DNA of 29,708 bases from a virus (Duplodnaviria > Heunggongvirae > Uroviricota > Caudoviricetes). Both the position numbers and the translations under genes were made by a program. The notes beneath the pieces are model-generated. The model searched no databases and was not told the origin of the DNA. It saw nothing but the letters and a program-made list of their open reading frames with translations. Shown here piece after piece: positions 9,602 through 25,183 of the stretch. The stretch lies in IMG/VR virus record IMGVR_UViG_2778261227_000004; one strand, written 5' to 3'. Every line of letters begins with the position of its first letter. The stretch's first letter is position 1.

Positions 9602-10630
9602 TTATTTCACCTGAACTACCACAAACGCGTCCGGATCCGGCAACACCATCAACGGCGCAGACTGCGTCATGGTATATTCGCACCCCGGGTCCCCCACCTC
9701 TAACCAGTGTTTCGGATAACGAATTGCAGAGGTGATCCCTTCACTCAGCGCCTGGTTATCCTGGATTGCGCCATAACAACGGACACCCTCCACCTGAGTG
9801 TTTCCAAGAATCAGTGTGCCTTCCGGCAGATAACGCTGCTCATCCCCGTTTTCATCAACATACGTTGTTTTCGCCACCATGATGGCCAGATCACCGTAAT
9901 AACCTTTAAAAGAAACCACGGAACCCAGATCTTTCAGCGCGGTTTCCAGTTCAGATTTTGAGCCACGGCGGGTATCCAGTTTTTCACGAAACAGCTTAAA
10001 ACCGTTCAGCATACGCCAGACAGTACCGTCCATAATCGCAATATTGATGGTACCGGAAGCAAAATCGCAGTACGCATCCAGATCATGCGTCGGATCAAAG
10101 GTGTCAGCATTCTGTTTTGACCATTCGCGTCCCCCTGCCTGCGTAATGTTATTGGCGGCAGAACGACCAAAATCCACTTCCACCGTCTCAAACTGTTCAC
10201 CGCTCATGGTGTACTTACCCTGCAGAACAGCGCTGACCGCCTGCATTTCTTCCACCTGCACAATCGCTTGCTCTTCCTGTTTCAGGTTGTCAGTCAGAAT
10301 ACGCAGGCGACGGTAGGCCGGGTCATTAAGACGGGCCGGATCTTCCCCCGGAAGACGCTCCACCGCCTGCTGATAATCCAGCCGGTGTTTTGGTTTAACA
10401 TAGCCGGGGCGTAACACGCGGGTTTCACCACCACGACTGCGCAGTACCTTACCTGACACAACCGGAGACACATATGCCGCAACCGGTGTTTTTCCGGTGA
10501 TTTTATCCAGCATCACTTCCTGAGTATGGAAAGTGACCGTACGACGAAAAAACAGCTCCAGAAACAGCGCACGGAATTTCACTTTCTGCTCGGTGTAGCC
10601 GAGCAACTGACGCGTGGTAAATAACCCCAT
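9602..10630 (-). CDS. E: major capsid protein E
   Basis: ATG 10630 preceded by AAAGGAAAG; ...FLELFF..., PGYVKPKH, AIVQVEEMQAVSAVLQGKYTM, KLDTRRGSKSELETA and TMTQSAPLMVLPDPD match lambda gpE. Confidence 0.9.
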   Translation of the reverse strand: MGLFTTRQLLGYTEQKVKFRALFLELFFRRTVTFHTQEVMLDKITGKTPVAAYVSPVVSGKVLRSRGGETRVLRPGYVKPKHRLDYQQAVERLPGEDPARLNDPAYRRLRILTDNLKQEEQAIVQVEEMQAVSAVLQGKYTMSGEQFETVEVDFGRSAANNITQAGGREWSKQNADTFDPTHDLDAYCDFASGTINIAIMDGTVWRMLNGFKLFREKLDTRRGSKSELETALKDLGSVVSFKGYYGDLAIMVAKTTYVDENGDEQRYLPEGTLILGNTQVEGVRCYGAIQDNQALSEGITSAIRYPKHWLEVGDPGCEYTMTQSAPLMVLPDPDAFVVVQVK

Positions 10631-10699
10631 AATTGACTTTCCTTTAAAAACACAAACGGGCCGCATCACGACCCGTTTTTTCAGTTAATCACTTCACCA

Positions 10700-11035
10700 T
10701 CAGGCGTGGCTGATGGCACTTCCCACAAACGCGTTGGCTTTTTTCACCGCATCCACCGAATCCGGCCAGACCAGCGATTCGGTGGCAAACGTACCGCTTT
10801 TGTAGTACGTCAGTGTGGGCTCGGTCCCGGCCAGCGCCAGTACCAGCACCCCCACAGCCGTTCCGGCTTTCTGACCATCCCATGCCACCAGTTTTCCGCT
10901 GGCGTCATCCAGCATCAGTGGCGTCAGTGAAGGCGTGGCAACACTGATACCACTGGTACCTGTTGCGGTATATACCGGATCGCTTCCGGCAAAAATGCGC
11001 CCGTCCGCGCGCTTTTCTGTGGTGGTTTTAATCAT
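10700..11035 (-). CDS. D: head decoration protein D
   Basis: ATG 11035 preceded by CAGGAGA; ...TPLMLD...KLVAWDG...YYKSGTF... resembles lambda gpD. Confidence 0.8.
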   Translation of the reverse strand: MIKTTTEKRADGRIFAGSDPVYTATGTSGISVATPSLTPLMLDDASGKLVAWDGQKAGTAVGVLVLALAGTEPTLTYYKSGTFATESLVWPDSVDAVKKANAFVGSAISHA

Positions 11036-11075
11036 TTTCTCAGTCTCCTGATTTATCTGAATCACGGATCCCCGC

Positions 11076-12692
11076 TTACGGCATACTCATCAGCAGTTCT
11101 TCTTCCCCGTTCCCGGCAGTTCCGCCACCGGAAACGGCACTGGCGGCATGCTGTGCCATGAAGCGCTCAAAAAGTGTTACCTGTGACGGTTGCGATACTG
11201 ATGGCGCAGCTGCCAGCAGCGTTTTCGCCTGCTCCACTGTCATTCCAGGTTGTTCAGCCAGCGCCTGTGCCAGTTTTTCGCGTCCTTTTGCTTCCGGCAA
11301 CGCAATAATTTGATCGCCGGTACTTGCCGTACCGGTTGCCGGTGCCGCTGCCAGTAGCATTTTCGCCTGTTCCACCGTCATTCCCGGCTGTTCAGCCAGC
11401 GCCTGTGCGAGTTGTTCACGCCCTTTTGCTTCCGGAAGTGCCATAATCTGCTCGCCGGTACTTGCCGCACCGGCAATCGGTGCCGCTGCCAGTAACGTTT
11501 TCGCCTGCTCCACCGTCATTCCCGGCTGTTCAGCCAGCGTCCGTGCCAGTTGTTCACGTCCTTTTGCTTCCGGAAGTGCCACAATCTGATCGCCTGTGCT
11601 GTCAGTACCGGCAACCGGTGCTGCCGCCAGTAATGTTTTTGCCTGCTCAACTGACATTCCCTGCTGACCTGCCAGCATCTGCGCCAGTTTTTCGCGTCCT
11701 TTCGCCTCCTGACAATTCAGGATCCCCATCACGCGCTGATTTTCCTGGGACACCGCTTCAGCAACGGTGAGATTTTTTGTTGTCATCGTATTCTCCTGTG
11801 TAACAGAGTCGTTCAGAGCAGAAACCATTACATCAACGGCATCTGCAGCATTAATCAGTTGATCAGCCAGGCCTGTATCAATGCCTGCCTGACCGTCATA
11901 AACGGCAGCCTCGGTATTCATCACCACCGCTGAACTCAGCCCCGTATAAAGTGCCACCTTGTCGACAAACATCCGGCGGGCCTCATCAATACGGCGCTGA
12001 AAATCCGCACGCACACCTGTCGGCAACGCCTGAATACTGTTGCCGTCAACCTTGTGCTGCCCGGAGTAAATCAGCGTGATATCCACGCCTTCCTGTGCCA
12101 GTTGTTTCTCGTAACTGGTGTGCGCCATCATCACACCAATCGAACCAATTTTTGCCGTCTGCGTGACCAGCCGACGCGTACAGGCCGCCGCCAGCAACAT
12201 GGCGGCTGAACAGGCCATGTCATTACACAGCGCCCACACGGGCTTCTGTTCCCGCAGACGGTAAATCATGTCAGCACAGTCAAACGCCCCGGCAGCCTGA
12301 CCGCCCGGACTGTCGATATCCAGTAAAATGCCGCGTACATCCGGGTCGTTCACCGCTGACTTAAGACGGGCAGTCAGACCGTCATAACCGGTCATACCGG
12401 AATATGGCCGCAGGGTACCCATTTTATGTACCAGCGTGCCGCTCACCGGCAGAATGGCAATACCATTTTTCACCTGGTAACTCTTTACCAGACGCGGACC
12501 ACCAGTCATATAATCGGTAACCGCCAGCTGCATACCATCGGAATCAAGCTGAACGGCCTGCTGCGGAACGGCAAGGCTGCCCGCCCCCATCTCCTTACCC
12601 AGTGCGCAAAAGAAAACCCGCGCATAGGCGGGTTCCAGTAAAAGCGGCTCATTAAATGCCATCGCGGCAATATGTGATAAATTACAGCGCAT
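11076..12692 (-). CDS. C: capsid assembly protease C with in-frame scaffold (Nu3-like) C-terminal region
   Basis: 538-aa ORF; N-terminus ...HIAAMAFNEPLLLEPAYARVFFCAL... and S49/ClpP-like core (GQAAGAFDCADMIY, ALCNDMACSAAMLLAAA, TGSIGVMMAH) match lambda gpC; C-terminal third holds the repeats below. Confidence 0.85.
   Translation of the reverse strand: MRCNLSHIAAMAFNEPLLLEPAYARVFFCALGKEMGAGSLAVPQQAVQLDSDGMQLAVTDYMTGGPRLVKSYQVKNGIAILPVSGTLVHKMGTLRPYSGMTGYDGLTARLKSAVNDPDVRGILLDIDSPGGQAAGAFDCADMIYRLREQKPVWALCNDMACSAAMLLAAACTRRLVTQTAKIGSIGVMMAHTSYEKQLAQEGVDITLIYSGQHKVDGNSIQALPTGVRADFQRRIDEARRMFVDKVALYTGLSSAVVMNTEAAVYDGQAGIDTGLADQLINAADAVDVMVSALNDSVTQENTMTTKNLTVAEAVSQENQRVMGILNCQEAKGREKLAQMLAGQQGMSVEQAKTLLAAAPVAGTDSTGDQIVALPEAKGREQLARTLAEQPGMTVEQAKTLLAAAPIAGAASTGEQIMALPEAKGREQLAQALAEQPGMTVEQAKMLLAAAPATGTASTGDQIIALPEAKGREKLAQALAEQPGMTVEQAKTLLAAAPSVSQPSQVTLFERFMAQHAASAVSGGGTAGNGEEELLMSMP
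11160..11710. repeat. four tandem in-frame 138-bp repeats (46-aa unit ALPEAKGREQLAxxLAEQPGMTVEQAKTLLAAAP...TGxQI) inside C/Nu3
   Basis: The motif GCTGCCAG(C/T)A recurs at about 11209, 11347, 11485 and 11623 (period 138 bp); the protein shows four near-identical 46-aa units. Confidence 0.85.
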
Positions 12693-14253
12693 CGCCTTTT
12701 TCTCCCGTTGTCTGTCGGATCTGCTGTTGAAACGCGTTCTTTATCCAGACCGGACGCGGAAGACCGGCAGCCTGTCGCTCCTGAGTTTCCCGTAGCTGCT
12801 GGCGGAAAATCTCCTGATAGTCATCCCCCATCAGGGCCAGCTCTTTCTCGTATGTACTCAGGCCGCCTTCAATGCGCATCACCGCTTCCTGCACTTCCTT
12901 AAGGCCATCAATCGCCATACGACCGGCACCAATCCACTCGGCACGGCACCACCCGGAACGGGCCTCCCAGAATGAGAAACGGGATTTCGGCGGACGGATC
13001 ACACCACGAATAAGGGCTTCCTCCAGCCAGCAGGCAAACATCTGTGACGCCAGGCGACTGGCCACAAATTTTCGTTTTCCCATAAAATACCGCCACGACT
13101 CATTGGCGGATGCCCTGGCACTGGAATAACTGACCTGTGAATAATCCCGGGAAAGCTGCTCATACGACACACCCAGTCCGGCAGCAATGTAACGTAACAG
13201 CGCCTTTTCCAGTTCAGAAAAACCATTATCCGCATTCTGGGCTGTCTGCAGATTCAGTGAATCTCCCGGGTAAAGATGCGGAATACGGACCCCGCCCAGT
13301 TTTACCGTATTGGTGGCGTAATAACGCGCGTAGCCTTTCATGATGGTGTTCAGGGGATTTTTACCTCCATCTCCCACCCCGGCGATATATTCAAACGCTT
13401 TTTCCGAATCCAGTGTGGATTCAATCGTGGCGGCATACATGGCGCGAACCACCGCCGACTGCAGTTGCGTGGCCTGCAGTGTGTCGAGCATCTTGAGACG
13501 CTCCATTACAGAATAAAACTGGTTGGCCCCGCGGGTCTGCCCGTCTTCCTGTGGCTGAAACACATGGATCATTCCCGGTCGTCCGGAAGGCAGTGTTGCC
13601 GTAATTCGTGTCCATTTACTGACACCGTAGCCGGGCCAGTCATCATCCTGAACATGGTAGGCCAGCGCTTTTCCGTGTCGGTTTATTTCCACCCCGGCAC
13701 GCATAAAACGATCGCCGGTACCATAACCGGGTGTACTGACACGCTTCGGGCTGATGGTTTTGAATTTCGTCCGGAATAATGACGTGGAGTCCGCATCCCA
13801 TACGGGCTGGACAAAAATTTCACCGTTAAACGTATGGACCCCCACCCCTTCACGAATGAATTCGGTAAACGAACGACGCCCTTCCACATCCATCGTACCA
13901 AACACCGGATCGCAGTATTCCATCCACGCCGCCTCAACATCTTCAATAAAAGCATGTGAATCTGCTTCCGACATCCCCAGCCAGCGCCAGTTGGGACGGT
14001 AACTCAGACGAAACATGTGCCCGACAATATGATCCTTATGAATTTCCACTGCATTCGATGCAATACCGTTGTTACGGACCAGATCATCCGCGCGGGCGTT
14101 ACCCAGATGAATGGAAGGTAAGAGCGCCACGTCGGCACTTTCCGGTGCAGGCAGCCATTCTGCCATTTGCCCACCGAACCCGGAACCACCACCAGAATAT
14201 CCCATGCTTTGCCGTAAAGGCTGCCCATGAATATCCACCAGTTCTCCGTTCAC
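12682..14253 (-). CDS. B: portal protein B
   Basis: 523-aa ORF, GTG start overlapping W stop; GGGSGFGGQ, ARADDLVRNNG, GDSLNLQTAQ, SELEKALLRYIAAGLGVSYEQLSRDY and MAIDGLKEVQEAVM match lambda gpB. Confidence 0.9.
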   Translation of the reverse strand: MNGELVDIHGQPLRQSMGYSGGGSGFGGQMAEWLPAPESADVALLPSIHLGNARADDLVRNNGIASNAVEIHKDHIVGHMFRLSYRPNWRWLGMSEADSHAFIEDVEAAWMEYCDPVFGTMDVEGRRSFTEFIREGVGVHTFNGEIFVQPVWDADSTSLFRTKFKTISPKRVSTPGYGTGDRFMRAGVEINRHGKALAYHVQDDDWPGYGVSKWTRITATLPSGRPGMIHVFQPQEDGQTRGANQFYSVMERLKMLDTLQATQLQSAVVRAMYAATIESTLDSEKAFEYIAGVGDGGKNPLNTIMKGYARYYATNTVKLGGVRIPHLYPGDSLNLQTAQNADNGFSELEKALLRYIAAGLGVSYEQLSRDYSQVSYSSARASANESWRYFMGKRKFVASRLASQMFACWLEEALIRGVIRPPKSRFSFWEARSGWCRAEWIGAGRMAIDGLKEVQEAVMRIEGGLSTYEKELALMGDDYQEIFRQQLRETQERQAAGLPRPVWIKNAFQQQIRQTTGEKGDAL

Positions 14254-20310: not shown

Positions 20311-20463
20311 TTATTCAGATTTGCGCAGTAAAGGGCGGAGCACGACCAGCGCCATCGCCACCAGCACGCCATCGGCAAGCACTGACATCAGGCGTCCGGT
20401 GAAATCCACCGCCACTACCAGAAACAGCAGGATGGCAGCCAGTACAAGACGCGCACTTTTCAC
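20311..20463 (-). CDS. 50-aa hydrophobic membrane protein, coupled to the TerB-like gene
   Basis: GTG at 20463 overlaps the TerB-like TGA (GTGA); VKSARLVLAAILLFLVVAVDFTGRLMSVLADGVLVAMALVVLRPLLRKSE. Below the ORF-track cutoff. Confidence 0.4.
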   Translation of the reverse strand: MKSARLVLAAILLFLVVAVDFTGRLMSVLADGVLVAMALVVLRPLLRKSE

Positions 20464-20885
20464 AGGTACTGCTCCAGCGGTAGCTGAAGCGCCTGAGCAA
20501 TTTTCTTGAGCTGTGCTTCTTCATCCGGACCAATGCCATCCTGGTCAGCGATATCCAGACACAGGCACAGCACATTAACTGCGTCATCAGTACCGGCAAC
20601 ATCAGCCAGCTGGCGAAGGGCTTCAGCATTAGCAGAGCGCGGCGACGCTTCATAACGGGCGCGGATATTTGCACTCATTTGTGCAATCTCGCCGGAGAAC
20701 GGTGCAAAGGCAGGAAGTGCTGCAATGGTTTTCTCCAGTACTGCGATTTCTTTCGCGTCGCAGGTGCCGTCAGCGTATGCAATGGAATACGCACCCCAGA
20801 CGGTCGCCTCCACTGCGTCGCGGTTCTCCATCTTCTTCACTTCGGTAATGGCCTTGCGGGTTTTCTTTTTGAAAATACCAAACAT
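20460..20885 (-). CDS. TerB-like (tellurite-resistance TerB / DjlA N-terminal-like) domain protein, 141 aa
   Basis: ATG 20885 preceded by AAGGAAAAG; paired acidic motifs (...AYADGTCDAKEIAVLE... and ...LDIADQDGIGPDEEAQLKKIA...) typical of TerB-like domains. Confidence 0.55.
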   Translation of the reverse strand: MFGIFKKKTRKAITEVKKMENRDAVEATVWGAYSIAYADGTCDAKEIAVLEKTIAALPAFAPFSGEIAQMSANIRARYEASPRSANAEALRQLADVAGTDDAVNVLCLCLDIADQDGIGPDEEAQLKKIAQALQLPLEQYL

Positions 20886-21454: not shown

Positions 21455-21478
21455 CCGCATGGAGGCGGGTTTAATTGC
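21455..21478. terminator. bidirectional hairpin between the convergent zinc-ribbon gene and the methyltransferase
   Basis: ACCCGC-ATGGAG-GCGGGT stem-loop at 21459-21476 overlapping the methyltransferase stop. Confidence 0.5.
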
Positions 21479-22520
21479 ACATTGCCGAAATTTCACCGAC
21501 TGTCTGCTCAAACCGTTCAGTTTCAAGCTCAACGCCGATTACCCGACGCCCCAGCGCCATCGCCGCTTTTATTGTTGACCCGGATCCCATAAAGAAATCC
21601 GCAACCAAATCACCGGGGCGACTACTGGCCTCAATTATCTGCCGCAACATATCTGCCGGTTTTTCACAGGGATGTTTGCCCGGATAATACTGCACGGGCT
21701 TGTGCGTCCAGACATCCGTATACGGAACGGCAGCCGATACGGAAAAATAACGCCGCAGGGATTTGTACTCCTTCAGCAGGCTGGCATATTGCCGGTTCAG
21801 TTCACTGTATGTGCTGACCAGCTGGTGGTGTGGCTTTTCCAGTTCACCGCGCTGATGTTTTTCTGCTGCAACACGCGCAAACAACGTCTGTAATTTCAGA
21901 TAATCGCCTTCGTTCGGCAACTGCCACTGGCTGATACCAAACCAGTGCGAAGCCATGTTTTTCTTTCCGGTGGCTTCCGCTATCTGTTTTGACGTTATCC
22001 CCAGTGATTCACGCGCATCACGAAAGTAAGAAATCAGCGGGGCCATGACATGCTGTTTTAGCTCGCGCCCCTTTGCCGCATAGCCGTCATTTTTGGGCTG
22101 GTATGGCCCCTGATAATGTTCTGCAAACAGAATGCGTTCTGTTGCCGGGAAATACGCCCGCAGGCTTTCCTTGTTGCATCCGTTCCAGCGTCCGGACGGC
22201 TTCGCCCAGATAATGTGGTTCAGCACATTAAAGCGCTGACGCATCATGATTTCGATATCAGATGCCAGGCGATGACCACAGAACAGGTAGAGACTTCCGG
22301 CAGGTTTCAGTACCCGCCAGAATTGCGCCAGACACTGATCCAGCCATTTCAGGTAATCATCGTCACCCTTCCACTGGTTATCCCAGCCCTCGGGCTTCAC
22401 TTTAAAGTATGGCGGGTCTGTGACTATCAGATCGACAGAGTTTTCCGGTAAGGTCTGGATAAATTCCAGGCAATCAGCGTTGATTAACTCGCAACTGGAT
22501 ATTTTTACAGTATTAGCCAT
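21471..22520 (-). CDS. orphan DNA methyltransferase (N6-adenine/N4-cytosine class, DPPY motif)
   Basis: 349 aa; N-terminal catalytic motif ...VDLIVTDPPYF... and C-terminal AdoMet motif ...DLVADFFMGSGSTIKAA...; no adjacent restriction endonuclease gene. Confidence 0.85.
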   Translation of the reverse strand: MANTVKISSCELINADCLEFIQTLPENSVDLIVTDPPYFKVKPEGWDNQWKGDDDYLKWLDQCLAQFWRVLKPAGSLYLFCGHRLASDIEIMMRQRFNVLNHIIWAKPSGRWNGCNKESLRAYFPATERILFAEHYQGPYQPKNDGYAAKGRELKQHVMAPLISYFRDARESLGITSKQIAEATGKKNMASHWFGISQWQLPNEGDYLKLQTLFARVAAEKHQRGELEKPHHQLVSTYSELNRQYASLLKEYKSLRRYFSVSAAVPYTDVWTHKPVQYYPGKHPCEKPADMLRQIIEASSRPGDLVADFFMGSGSTIKAAMALGRRVIGVELETERFEQTVGEISAMCN

Positions 22521-23061: not shown

Positions 23062-23098
23062 ATGCGCAAAATACACTTTTCAGTTCGGTTTTGCAATA
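23062..23098 (-). promoter_or_regulatory. candidate late promoter pR' (possible qut region)
   Basis: Minus strand TTGCAA, 17 nt, TATTTT at the 3' end of the Q-like gene. Confidence 0.4.
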
Positions 23099-23769
23099 TT
23101 TAACCTGGTATTAGATACCTTTTGTTGTGAACGTAAGTGCATTGCCGATATAAGCGCATCTTTGTCCAGGCCTGTAACACAGTCACGCATAATCTCCCAG
23201 CGAGGTCGGTATGTCTCTGTCCATGTGGATTTAGCAACCCCCATCAATTCAGCCAGTTCCTGATATTCATAAGTCTCACTCCCAGCCAGCTCGCTCTTCA
23301 CATCCTGCGCCGCCAGCCAGATTAATTTTTTCAGGCGTTCCCGTGTTTTCTCCGCAATTTTTCTGGTACCAGATTGCGCGTTAAATTCATTCCACGCCCA
23401 CTGTGTTATCGCAATCTGGTGTTCCCAGCAAATGCTGCCGCTGTAACACCACAGCAACCAGGCTTTATGGTGTTCTTCAAGAGACAGAACTGCCCGTCGC
23501 CATGATGATGTCGAGAACTCAACCTGACTCACCAGAGGAATAGACGTCCCCTTTGCCAGCGATTGTTTCCCCGGGATTGGTGGATTATCCCGCGTGATCA
23601 TTTTTCCGGTCACTTCATCACGGTACCGGATTTTTTTACGCCTGTAACGCCCTGTATCGAACATGGCATTCTCCTGCCAGGCTTCAAGCTGACCTTTTGT
23701 TGCCCCACTCAAATCGGCGGTGGCGATAATGAGCTGCTCACGAACAAACTGTAAATACTGGTTATTCAT
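23080..23769 (-). CDS. putative late-gene antiterminator (Q-like), 229 aa
   Basis: ATG 23769 overlaps the rusA stop (ATGA). Assignment rests on synteny (rusA, then this gene, then promoter and terminator, then late and lysis genes); the sequence is not lambda Q-like by eye. Confidence 0.45.
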   Translation of the reverse strand: MNNQYLQFVREQLIIATADLSGATKGQLEAWQENAMFDTGRYRRKKIRYRDEVTGKMITRDNPPIPGKQSLAKGTSIPLVSQVEFSTSSWRRAVLSLEEHHKAWLLWCYSGSICWEHQIAITQWAWNEFNAQSGTRKIAEKTRERLKKLIWLAAQDVKSELAGSETYEYQELAELMGVAKSTWTETYRPRWEIMRDCVTGLDKDALISAMHLRSQQKVSNTRLNIAKPN

Positions 23770-24121
23770 GCGCACTCCAGCTCTGTGATTTTTATCCCCA
23801 GTCGACCACCAGGAACAGGCAGACCGCGCACAATATTAATTTCATCAAACTGCTCGTCGTCGATAAGCAACCCCGCATGCGTCAGCGCATCCAGCGGTGC
23901 TTTCAGGATATTGTCCAGGTCCCGACGGCGCTTATCCGGCGGCTCTGCAATAATTTTTATTGCCAGCCTTCCGGACTTAATTTCAGTCGCTGCTGGCGAA
24001 CAATAAGTGCCACATCACGGCGATAACGCTCACCGGCTTTTGATACAAAATATGTGCTGCCACGACGTCGCCAGTAGGTGTTCACCGTTGGCGGGTAAGG
24101 CAAAACAAACTCTATACGCAT
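23766..24121 (-). pseudogene. rusA: Holliday junction resolvase RusA, disrupted by a frameshift
   Basis: From ATG 24121 (RBS AAGAGG): MRIEFVLPYPPTVNTYWRRRGSTYFVSKAGERYRRDVALIVRQQRLKLSPEGWQ, then stop. The -1 frame continues ...LAIKIIAEPPDKRRRDLDNILKAPLDALTHAGLLIDDEQFDEINIVRGLPVPGGRLGIKITELECA. Both halves match RusA; the span is 356 nt, not a multiple of three. Confidence 0.65.
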
Positions 24122-24133
24122 CAGTAACCTCTT

Positions 24134-25183
24134 TTACCCGAGCACGCCGGTTGCAAAGGCGTGATCAAGAAAACGAAAAATTAAATCAATCTGGGAACCA
24201 TGCTTTTCTTCGAACGCCAGCGGATCCGCATGAAGCTCGTTGTGATGCTCCCGACACAACGGTAGCGTGAAAATATCGTGGGATTTTGTTCCCATTCCAC
24301 CCTGACCATGACCAATCAGGTGATGGGGATCGTCGGCTGGCTTACCACAACACGCGCACGGCTGTGTCTTTACCCAGCGCGTGTATTTCTCATTCATCCA
24401 GCGGCGACGTTTAGGTCGCCTCATGAAAGATTCAGGAGACTCCGGATCTACGGCAATGCTGACCACCGTCTTTTCCTGTGGTGCGTTCTGTTGCTGGTGG
24501 ACGTGAGGCAACTGCGCAAGATTTTTTGTGCGCTGCTTCAGTATGCTGGTGGCGGTCTGCTCTCCCGGTATGATGTCGCTTTCGCGGTACACCGAGCGGA
24601 TTTTTTCCGCACGTAATCCCAGCGAACGACGCAATACTGTCTCCGGTAGCGCGTCCGCCACCTGATTGCAGACTGCCCACCAGGATAATTCAGCCAGCGA
24701 TAATTCCCGCTCCTGTGTGCCATTCATTGCCTGGCGTATGACGTCAATCATCCATGCTGTCAGGTTTTGGTGAGCAAGTTGCCCGAGTGATTCGGAAGTC
24801 TGGTCACGCAGCTGGTTGTCGCAGTGCCAGCACAACACCATCGCGCCAGCACCGTAACGATGTATGACGGTTTCGCTGTGATGGTAGTCACCATGAGGCC
24901 ACTGGCAGGATTTAACGTGGCGCAATAGCCAGTCAGACAGTGCACCAGCACCGCCAGCAGCGCGAATCACCCGCTCATCGCTGAAAAATGGCAGCAGAGA
25001 TTTGTCTTCCGCCAGCGGCTGGCGAACGGCAGGAACGACTCCGGATGGCAGACCTCGCATGCTTTTTGGTTCCGGCTCCACCAGCACACGCCCCTGCATA
25101 AACAAAGGCATCGCATCAGGACCGGGCCTGAAAAGTACAATCCCCAGACGGTGAGCAATTTCAGGAGTCACTAATACCCGCAC
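24134..25183 (-). CDS. DUF968-like prophage protein
   Basis: GTG 25183 preceded by GGAGGT; C-terminal ...CACCGKPADDPHHLIGHGQGGMGTKSHDIFTLPLCREHHNELH... recalled as DUF968, common beside rusA/Q in lambdoid prophages. Confidence 0.55.
   Translation of the reverse strand: MRVLVTPEIAHRLGIVLFRPGPDAMPLFMQGRVLVEPEPKSMRGLPSGVVPAVRQPLAEDKSLLPFFSDERVIRAAGGAGALSDWLLRHVKSCQWPHGDYHHSETVIHRYGAGAMVLCWHCDNQLRDQTSESLGQLAHQNLTAWMIDVIRQAMNGTQERELSLAELSWWAVCNQVADALPETVLRRSLGLRAEKIRSVYRESDIIPGEQTATSILKQRTKNLAQLPHVHQQQNAPQEKTVVSIAVDPESPESFMRRPKRRRWMNEKYTRWVKTQPCACCGKPADDPHHLIGHGQGGMGTKSHDIFTLPLCREHHNELHADPLAFEEKHGSQIDLIFRFLDHAFATGVLG

Follow-up and report, generated by a model that had tools for sequence, protein, structure and literature searches.

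In lambda-type phages, a prohead protease of the S49 family is fused to a scaffold domain, which is read a second time from an in-frame start to give a separate scaffold protein: C (439 residues) and Nu3 (201 residues) in lambda, and gp5 (501 residues) and gp6 (200 residues) in phage 21. Lambda Nu3 is reported to interact with E, B, C and itself, the interaction with E having been detected by yeast two-hybrid assay (PMC3224144). In the GenBank record of the phage 21 head operon (M81255.1, from 1993), three segments of gene 6, spaced about 140 bp apart within the part common to genes 5 and 6, are annotated as 'Tri1 box', 'Tri box' and 'Tri3 box', with the note 'function unknown; putative'. The window analysed here is the whole 29,708-nucleotide stretch of the virus record IMGVR_UViG_2778261227_000004 (Caudoviricetes), and in it the homologue of lambda C and phage 21 gp5 occupies positions 11076-12692 on the minus strand (538 residues and stop) and carries four tandem copies of a 46-residue unit. 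This repeat is the four-copy version of the phage 21 Tri box, belonging to a known protease-scaffold family in which the repeat has been annotated since 1993. The array is genuine and long-standing, and its units probably serve as a multivalent capsid-assembly module of a scaffold domain shared with the protease.

Tandem Repeats Finder, run over the whole window, found one array only (11209-11709; period 138, 3.6 copies, 84% matches, no indels, score 659), which lies in frame within the open reading frame (ORF) and is translated into four 46-residue units, all on the minus strand. Unit 1 (11580-11717, residues 326-371) has an upstream context in common with lambda (ENQRVMGILNC). Unit 2 (11442-11579, residues 372-417) is nearest to unit 3 (11304-11441, residues 418-463), with a DNA identity of 89-93% and a synonymous divergence (dS) of 0.19. 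Unit 4 (11166-11303, residues 464-509) follows the repeat over its first ~34-37 residues and then passes into a unique C-terminal tail (FERFMAQH...LLMSMP; 11079-11165, minus strand, residues 510-538), which is conserved with phage 21 (FEHFMANH...MLMAMP). Against a hidden Markov model (HMM) of the unit, each of the four scores 69-73 bits.

An earlier note on this DNA, made from the letters alone, had described four tandem in-frame 138-bp repeats in the C homologue; its period and coordinates are right, as both Tandem Repeats Finder and the translation show, and the strand, which it did not give, is minus. Its description of the copies as near-identical and differing at only a few positions was overstated. 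Pairwise identities among the four units are 59-89% (DNA) and 61-83% (amino acid) over all 46 codons, and 72-93% and 74-94%, respectively, over the 34-codon core. Every pair of units is separated by 4-17 synonymous codon differences, any two units differ at no fewer than 15 of the 138 positions, and the longest exact run common to two units is 31 nt, most pairs having runs of only 8-20 nt.

The phage 21 Tri boxes, taken here from the GenBank annotation, have translations such as QEAKGREQLATMLAGQQGMSVEQARAILAAA and are homologous to the window units; a single unit HMM matches all the units of both the window protein and the phage 21 protein (60-73 bits). The two proteins agree in gene position, S49 domain, the place of the nested in-frame start (a putative one in the window) and C-terminal tail, and also in a repeat period of ~46-47 residues, the phage 21 units having 43-76% amino-acid identity to those of the window. 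They differ in that phage 21 has three units as against four here, a long product of 501 residues as against 538, and a nested product of 200 residues as against a predicted 236; their overall identity is 59%, and the window units are more alike than are phage 21's own units. The gpC homologue of Gifsy-1 (Salmonella, 498 residues) likewise joins an S49 protease to a scaffold with three units of the same module, but has a different C-terminal extension. In the phage-21-type homologues P0044 and P0045, an in-frame deletion inside unit 2 (...EEANGREQLAAAPLADAG...) joins helix 1 to the unit end and gives a nested protein of 181 residues; partial-unit deletions therefore occur as well.

Lambda C belongs to the same family, with the same portal-C-D-E gene order and a related tail after the module, but has exactly one module, NCEEAHGREEQARVLAETPGMTVKTARRILAAAP, at residues 366-400 (56 bits). 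It also differs in a ~45-residue insertion between the protease and the unit, and in that Nu3 starts at Met239 inside the protease domain, where the window has Ile235 and lacks a start. Nu3, with one unit and a long linker, is about as long as phage 21 gp6 with its three units. The lambda unit is aligned by BLAST both to window unit 1 with its upstream context and to the last window unit with its tail. Such an alignment of lambda's single unit to both ends of the array is what internal multiplication of the lambda module would produce. The length of about 439 residues that the earlier note gave for lambda C is correct, and the extra length of the window protein is due to the added repeat units.

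The assignment of the host gene is supported by several searches. The 538-residue ORF matches PHROG 53, head maturation protease (E = 4.5e-218), lambda C (55% identity over 396 residues, E = 1e-142) and phage 21 gp5 (59% identity, E = 0), and its S49 peptidase domain (11823-12257, minus strand, residues 146-290) matches Pfam PF01343, Peptidase_S49 (E = 4.1e-33). Ser162, in CNDMACSAAML, is aligned with the Ser of the lambda NDMNCSAGQL motif, which is catalytic in lambda, and is the putative nucleophile. Among solved structures, the SppA entries 3rst and 4kwb match the N-terminal protease part (E ~ 7e-17); PDB sequence matches were confined to such SppA-type proteases, and none was found beyond the N-terminal protease domain.

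Within the long ORF, an ATG at 11786 is preceded, 6 nt upstream, by the Shine-Dalgarno sequence AGGAG (11793-11797, minus strand), which is the best match among all in-frame starts between residues 200 and 330 and the only good one. This start, Met303, coincides with that of phage 21 gene 6 (residue 302 of gp5), and the phage 21 records annotate a ribosome-binding site at the equivalent place; stand-alone homologues of 199-206 residues, which are gene-caller predictions, begin at the same place. The sequence thus points to a second product, a Nu3-like scaffold of 236 residues (11076-11786, minus strand; the presumed equivalent of Nu3 and gp6), which would be translated from Met303. The array falls in the region that would be read twice, that is, in the C-terminal third of the protease and in most of the predicted nested scaffold, and the repeats would be common to both products, the 538-residue prohead protease and the 236-residue scaffold. 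The placing of the repeats in the Nu3-like scaffold portion, already proposed in the earlier note, is supported.

The four-unit state is widespread. Of the 60 complete E. coli genomes that match best, 59 have a gene of exactly 1617 nt (89.6-99.7% identity); the nearest are those of the bovine strains C311 and NS-NP030, whose four-unit gene is 99.7% identical. A search with the array by itself gives matches in 96 complete E. coli genomes (E ≤ 1e-100), of which 94 span 80% or more of its length; in 59 of 60 rows sampled across the ranking of these 96 genomes, the alignment is collinear, i.e. there are four copies, and one sampled genome has three. The allele of strain RM9088 has four units although its array is only ~84-86% identical. 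An IMG/VR prophage encodes a protein identical to that of the window. Four copies are the standard state of this prophage lineage. Other numbers do occur: proteins of 446, 492, 538 and 584 residues, at IMG/VR and GTDB loci, carry 2, 3, 4 and 5 units, respectively, and the complete genome PapRG-04-4 has three units, the middle one being a mosaic of window units 2 and 3 (8 and 9 differences in 138 positions). These copy numbers were counted on DNA loci; a word-indexed protein search with the nested protein gave mostly truncated 'partial' entries and no full-length four-copy protein.

The divergence of the units is considerable. Within the window, dS between units ranges from 0.19 (units 2 and 3) to 1.33, with most pairs at 0.6-1.3, and the ratio of nonsynonymous to synonymous divergence (dN/dS) is 0.12-0.48. 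Between alleles, dS is 0.62-0.65 and dN/dS 0.13-0.18 in the array, as compared with 0.08-0.31 and 0.11-0.18, respectively, in the protease domain. The substitutions in the array, both between units and between alleles, are mostly synonymous in the C frame. The units are of old origin, and purifying selection acts on every one of them.

The array also evolves differently from its surroundings. Positions 11166-11717 were compared with eight other loci (L003, L013, L019, L020, L033, L037, L042 and L044). Every comparison showed greater divergence in the array than in any of the five larger segments around it (portal, protease, tail, D and E), and in seven of the eight no other stretch of the portal-C-D-E block had diverged as far; identity in the array is ~84% (64-93% over the eight alleles) as against 88-99% for the flanking segments. 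Most of the changes are synonymous, which points to conversion or turnover of units and not to a loosening of constraint. Units at the same position in different alleles are not orthologues of each other: unit 3 of RM9088 is the best match of both window unit 2 and window unit 3. Such patterns indicate birth, loss and conversion of units, with their number remaining at four. Copy number varies in steps of entire units, and there is exchange or replacement of units from one position to another.

AlphaFold2 consistently gives each unit a pair of helices. In the model of the single unit, helices are placed at residues 3-23 and 27-36, with a predicted local distance difference test score (pLDDT) of ~81 in the core and a mean of 67; in the model of the nested protein, based on 16 aligned sequences, the linkers fall below 50, overall confidence is low (mean 56), and a further helix is predicted in the tail (nested residues 202-213). 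Each unit is thus predicted to be a helix-turn-helix followed by a disordered linker of ~10 residues rich in Ala, Gly, Thr and Ser. Foldseek, run with the unit model against the PDB, returned nothing at E ≤ 0.001; the best matches (E about 2; the N-terminal helices of HU and a helix pair of ClpP) are what any two-helix hairpin gives and were not retained.

The same module is found well beyond these phages. A profile of the four window units, searched against 1.84 billion representative proteins, matches 510 of them (E ≤ 0.001), and among the best 150 of the 510, one module is present in 133, two in 12 and three in 5. In the 57 long single-module proteins the module ends at a median of 46 residues from the C-terminus, and one distant protein with a single module is encoded within a gpA-gpW-portal-S49-HDPD-cap_E set of head genes. 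A prophage-like region of a Bradyrhizobium chromosome (L091, 5001-5492) encodes a stand-alone protein of 163 residues with two modules, a few genes before a tape-measure gene and just upstream of a 297-residue protein, for which no family was matched; the module is therefore used outside the S49 fusions too. In three proteins (P0156, P0161 and P0209, of 535, 582 and 844 residues) the lambda C/Nu3 C-terminus is joined to unrelated upstream or downstream sequence, and these are probably frameshifted or mis-called genes and not real fusions. No model of Pfam or NCBIfam covers the repeat unit. Sub-threshold Pfam matches on the repeats (Peptidase_C23, T2SSK, Bac_DNA_binding, HTH_15 and DUF732), together with those from NCBIfam, were rejected as noise inflated by the repeats, there being no passing stretch. 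A search of the literature on Nu3 with repeats returned nothing on copy number.

The scaffold protein gp8 of phage P22 offers a functional analogy. Its C-terminal helix-turn-helix 'hook' binds the inner capsid surface with partial occupancy (PMC12005531; see also PMC11922011), and it resembles the predicted window unit in being short, made of two helices and placed close to the C-terminal end of a scaffold that is mostly flexible. By this analogy, each unit is probably an independent protein-interaction hook of the scaffold on a flexible tether. The partner would most likely be the inner face of the E-type major capsid protein, with self-association and binding to the portal as alternatives. 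Tandem units on flexible linkers would raise the valency of each scaffold chain, and of the protease riding on the same domain, so that one chain could engage several neighbouring subunits during procapsid assembly, before the scaffold is degraded by the protease. The array would grow and shrink by in-register recombination or slippage between units.

Several observations weigh against this interpretation. The P22 hook is present in a single copy at the extreme C-terminus, without a fused protease, whereas the window module, whose binding to the capsid is proposed by analogy, is followed by a conserved tail of 29-46 residues that could itself bind the coat; neither the PDB sequence search nor Foldseek gave a significant match to the gp8 C-terminal domain. 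The charge pattern of helix 2 is not conserved (VKTARRIL in lambda as against VEQAKTLL in the window), the helix-turn-helix prediction is of moderate confidence, as seen in the mean pLDDT values above, and translation from Met303 is deduced from sequence alone. Moreover, lambda works with one unit and relatives with 2-5 exist, so that valency is not critical for viability and could be nearly neutral. Finally, where alleles of 2, 3 and 5 copies have internal units of identical DNA, they come from draft assemblies and may be artefacts of collapse or expansion. It is only a tentative proposition, and one that we would sooner doubt than accept, that the copy number is itself a selected, tunable valency, held at four here, at three in the phage 21/Gifsy-1 lineage and at one in lambda.

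The scaffolds of P22 and 80alpha bind the capsid protein by their extreme C-terminus. In the window protein this position is taken by the unique tail, and the units may instead be modules for self-association or spacing, which determine how long or bulky the scaffold core is, or how it oligomerises, while the tail binds the capsid protein. We regard this as possible, though the less probable account of the units. A conserved tail always comes after the last module, as reflected in the median distance of 46 residues in the long single-module proteins, and the tail of the window protein has a predicted helix and shows conservation with phage 21 and, to a lesser degree, lambda. The self-association of Nu3 (PMC3224144) fits such a role, and the best, non-significant fold matches of the unit are dimerisation helices, those of HU. 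The nearly equal lengths of Nu3 and gp6 hint at a constraint on length rather than on the number of units; the window scaffold, however, has 236 residues, so length is not strictly conserved, and in distant relatives it is the module, not the tail, that is recovered by sequence profiles.

The view implied by the earlier note, that the array arose by recent expansion of a coding repeat, is unstable and essentially neutral, and has a copy number without functional meaning, appears very improbable. It would fit the range of 2 to 5 copies seen in alleles that elsewhere are at least 97% identical, the sufficiency of one unit in lambda and the closeness of units 2 and 3. The recent origin is, however, already contradicted by the synonymous divergence between units, which is as large as, or larger than, that between alleles in the protease domain, and by the shortness of the exact runs in most pairs. 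Four copies have persisted over ~16% divergence of the array and in nearly all the complete genomes sampled, and the low dN/dS of the array between alleles implies that every unit is constrained. The recombinational instability that was proposed together with the recent duplication does hold on an evolutionary scale, given the relatives with 2, 3 and 5 copies, the complete genome with three, and the turnover of units between alleles.

Assembly noise, which the earlier note had allowed for, is not borne out. That the repeat was collapsed or expanded in the source assembly would be plausible for a sister allele, which is found in IMG/VR prophages from draft genomes with 2 units (L045 and L046), 3 (L027), 4 (L013) or 5 (L016); in this series the flanking sequences are the same to within 0-1 nt and the internal units show 100% DNA identity, and the differences in number could have come about by very recent slippage or by the collapsing and expanding of repeats in short-read drafts. 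Nothing of the kind is specific to the window, where the units are too different, and their exact repeats too short, for such an error, and where the same four-unit gene is found in the complete genomes C311 and NS-NP030 and an identical protein in another prophage. An artefact is thus extremely improbable. It may be added that a large share of the database homologues are 'partial' S49 peptidases from contig ends, and that up to 8 copies of the C homologue are present per E. coli genome; from these two observations it seems that short-read assemblies of poly-lysogens often break within this gene.

A role at the DNA or RNA level (regulatory binding sites, an antisense gene or a structured RNA) has next to no likelihood. 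In its favour are two CII sites, marked by the pattern ttgyN6ttgy alone in gene 5/6 of the newer phage 21 record OL657228.1 (L094; 1309-1322 and 1543-1556), and a 102-residue ORF on the opposite strand of the window (11462-11770). Against it, the substitutions between units and between alleles are mainly synonymous in the C frame; no TTGYN6TTGY site occurs in or near the array (the whole window has 3, where ~7 would be expected by chance); nothing resembling a promoter or terminator lies within 11160-11720; no Rfam family matches the array; and the opposite-strand ORF matches no Pfam family. The setting of capsid size by copy number was also set aside, as lambda (one unit, 48.5 kb) and phage 21 (three units, 42.9 kb) have E-type capsid proteins of similar length; prophage contigs with four units are of 44-47 kb.

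The C homologue is flanked by genes in the lambda-type order, all on the minus strand. Upstream lies the portal gene of the lambda B family (12682-14253; Pfam PF05136, E = 2e-95), which overlaps the start of C by 11 nt (12682-12692). The same overlap is annotated by RefSeq in strains C311 and RM9088. An overlap of this kind suggests that the two genes may be translationally coupled. Directly downstream is the gene of a head decoration protein of the lambda D family (10700-11065; PF02924, E = 9e-22), followed by that of the major capsid protein of the lambda E family (9602-10669; PF03864, E = 8e-65). RefSeq homologues of the latter are annotated at 1029 nt, and its true start is probably slightly downstream of the first start codon of the ORF. 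The window comes from a lambda-like E. coli prophage, and its remaining part is a lambdoid late region with Q, methyltransferase, lysis genes, terminase and tail genes. Its cargo genes, also on the minus strand, encode a 'tellurite resistance'-family moron (phrog_632; 20460-20885), a 349-residue DNA methyltransferase (21471-22520) and a 349-residue protein of the HNH-endonuclease family phrog_96 (24134-25183), and sit on either side of the Q antiterminator gene (23080-23775).

The array is, then, a real feature, neither an assembly error nor a recent unstable duplication. Its module of ~36 residues, predicted to form two helices, is present once in lambda C/Nu3 and in hundreds of related protease and scaffold proteins, yet is covered by no curated family or structure. 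The turnover of units at a constant count is worth knowing when prophage head genes are typed or assembled. The natural alleles with one to five copies provide a simple genetic handle on the role of this part of the lambda-type scaffold. If copy number is indeed a selected valency, this series would be a system for relating scaffold valency to procapsid nucleation, scaffold-to-capsid stoichiometry and protease loading, and the module would be a widespread and still uncatalogued capsid-assembly domain.

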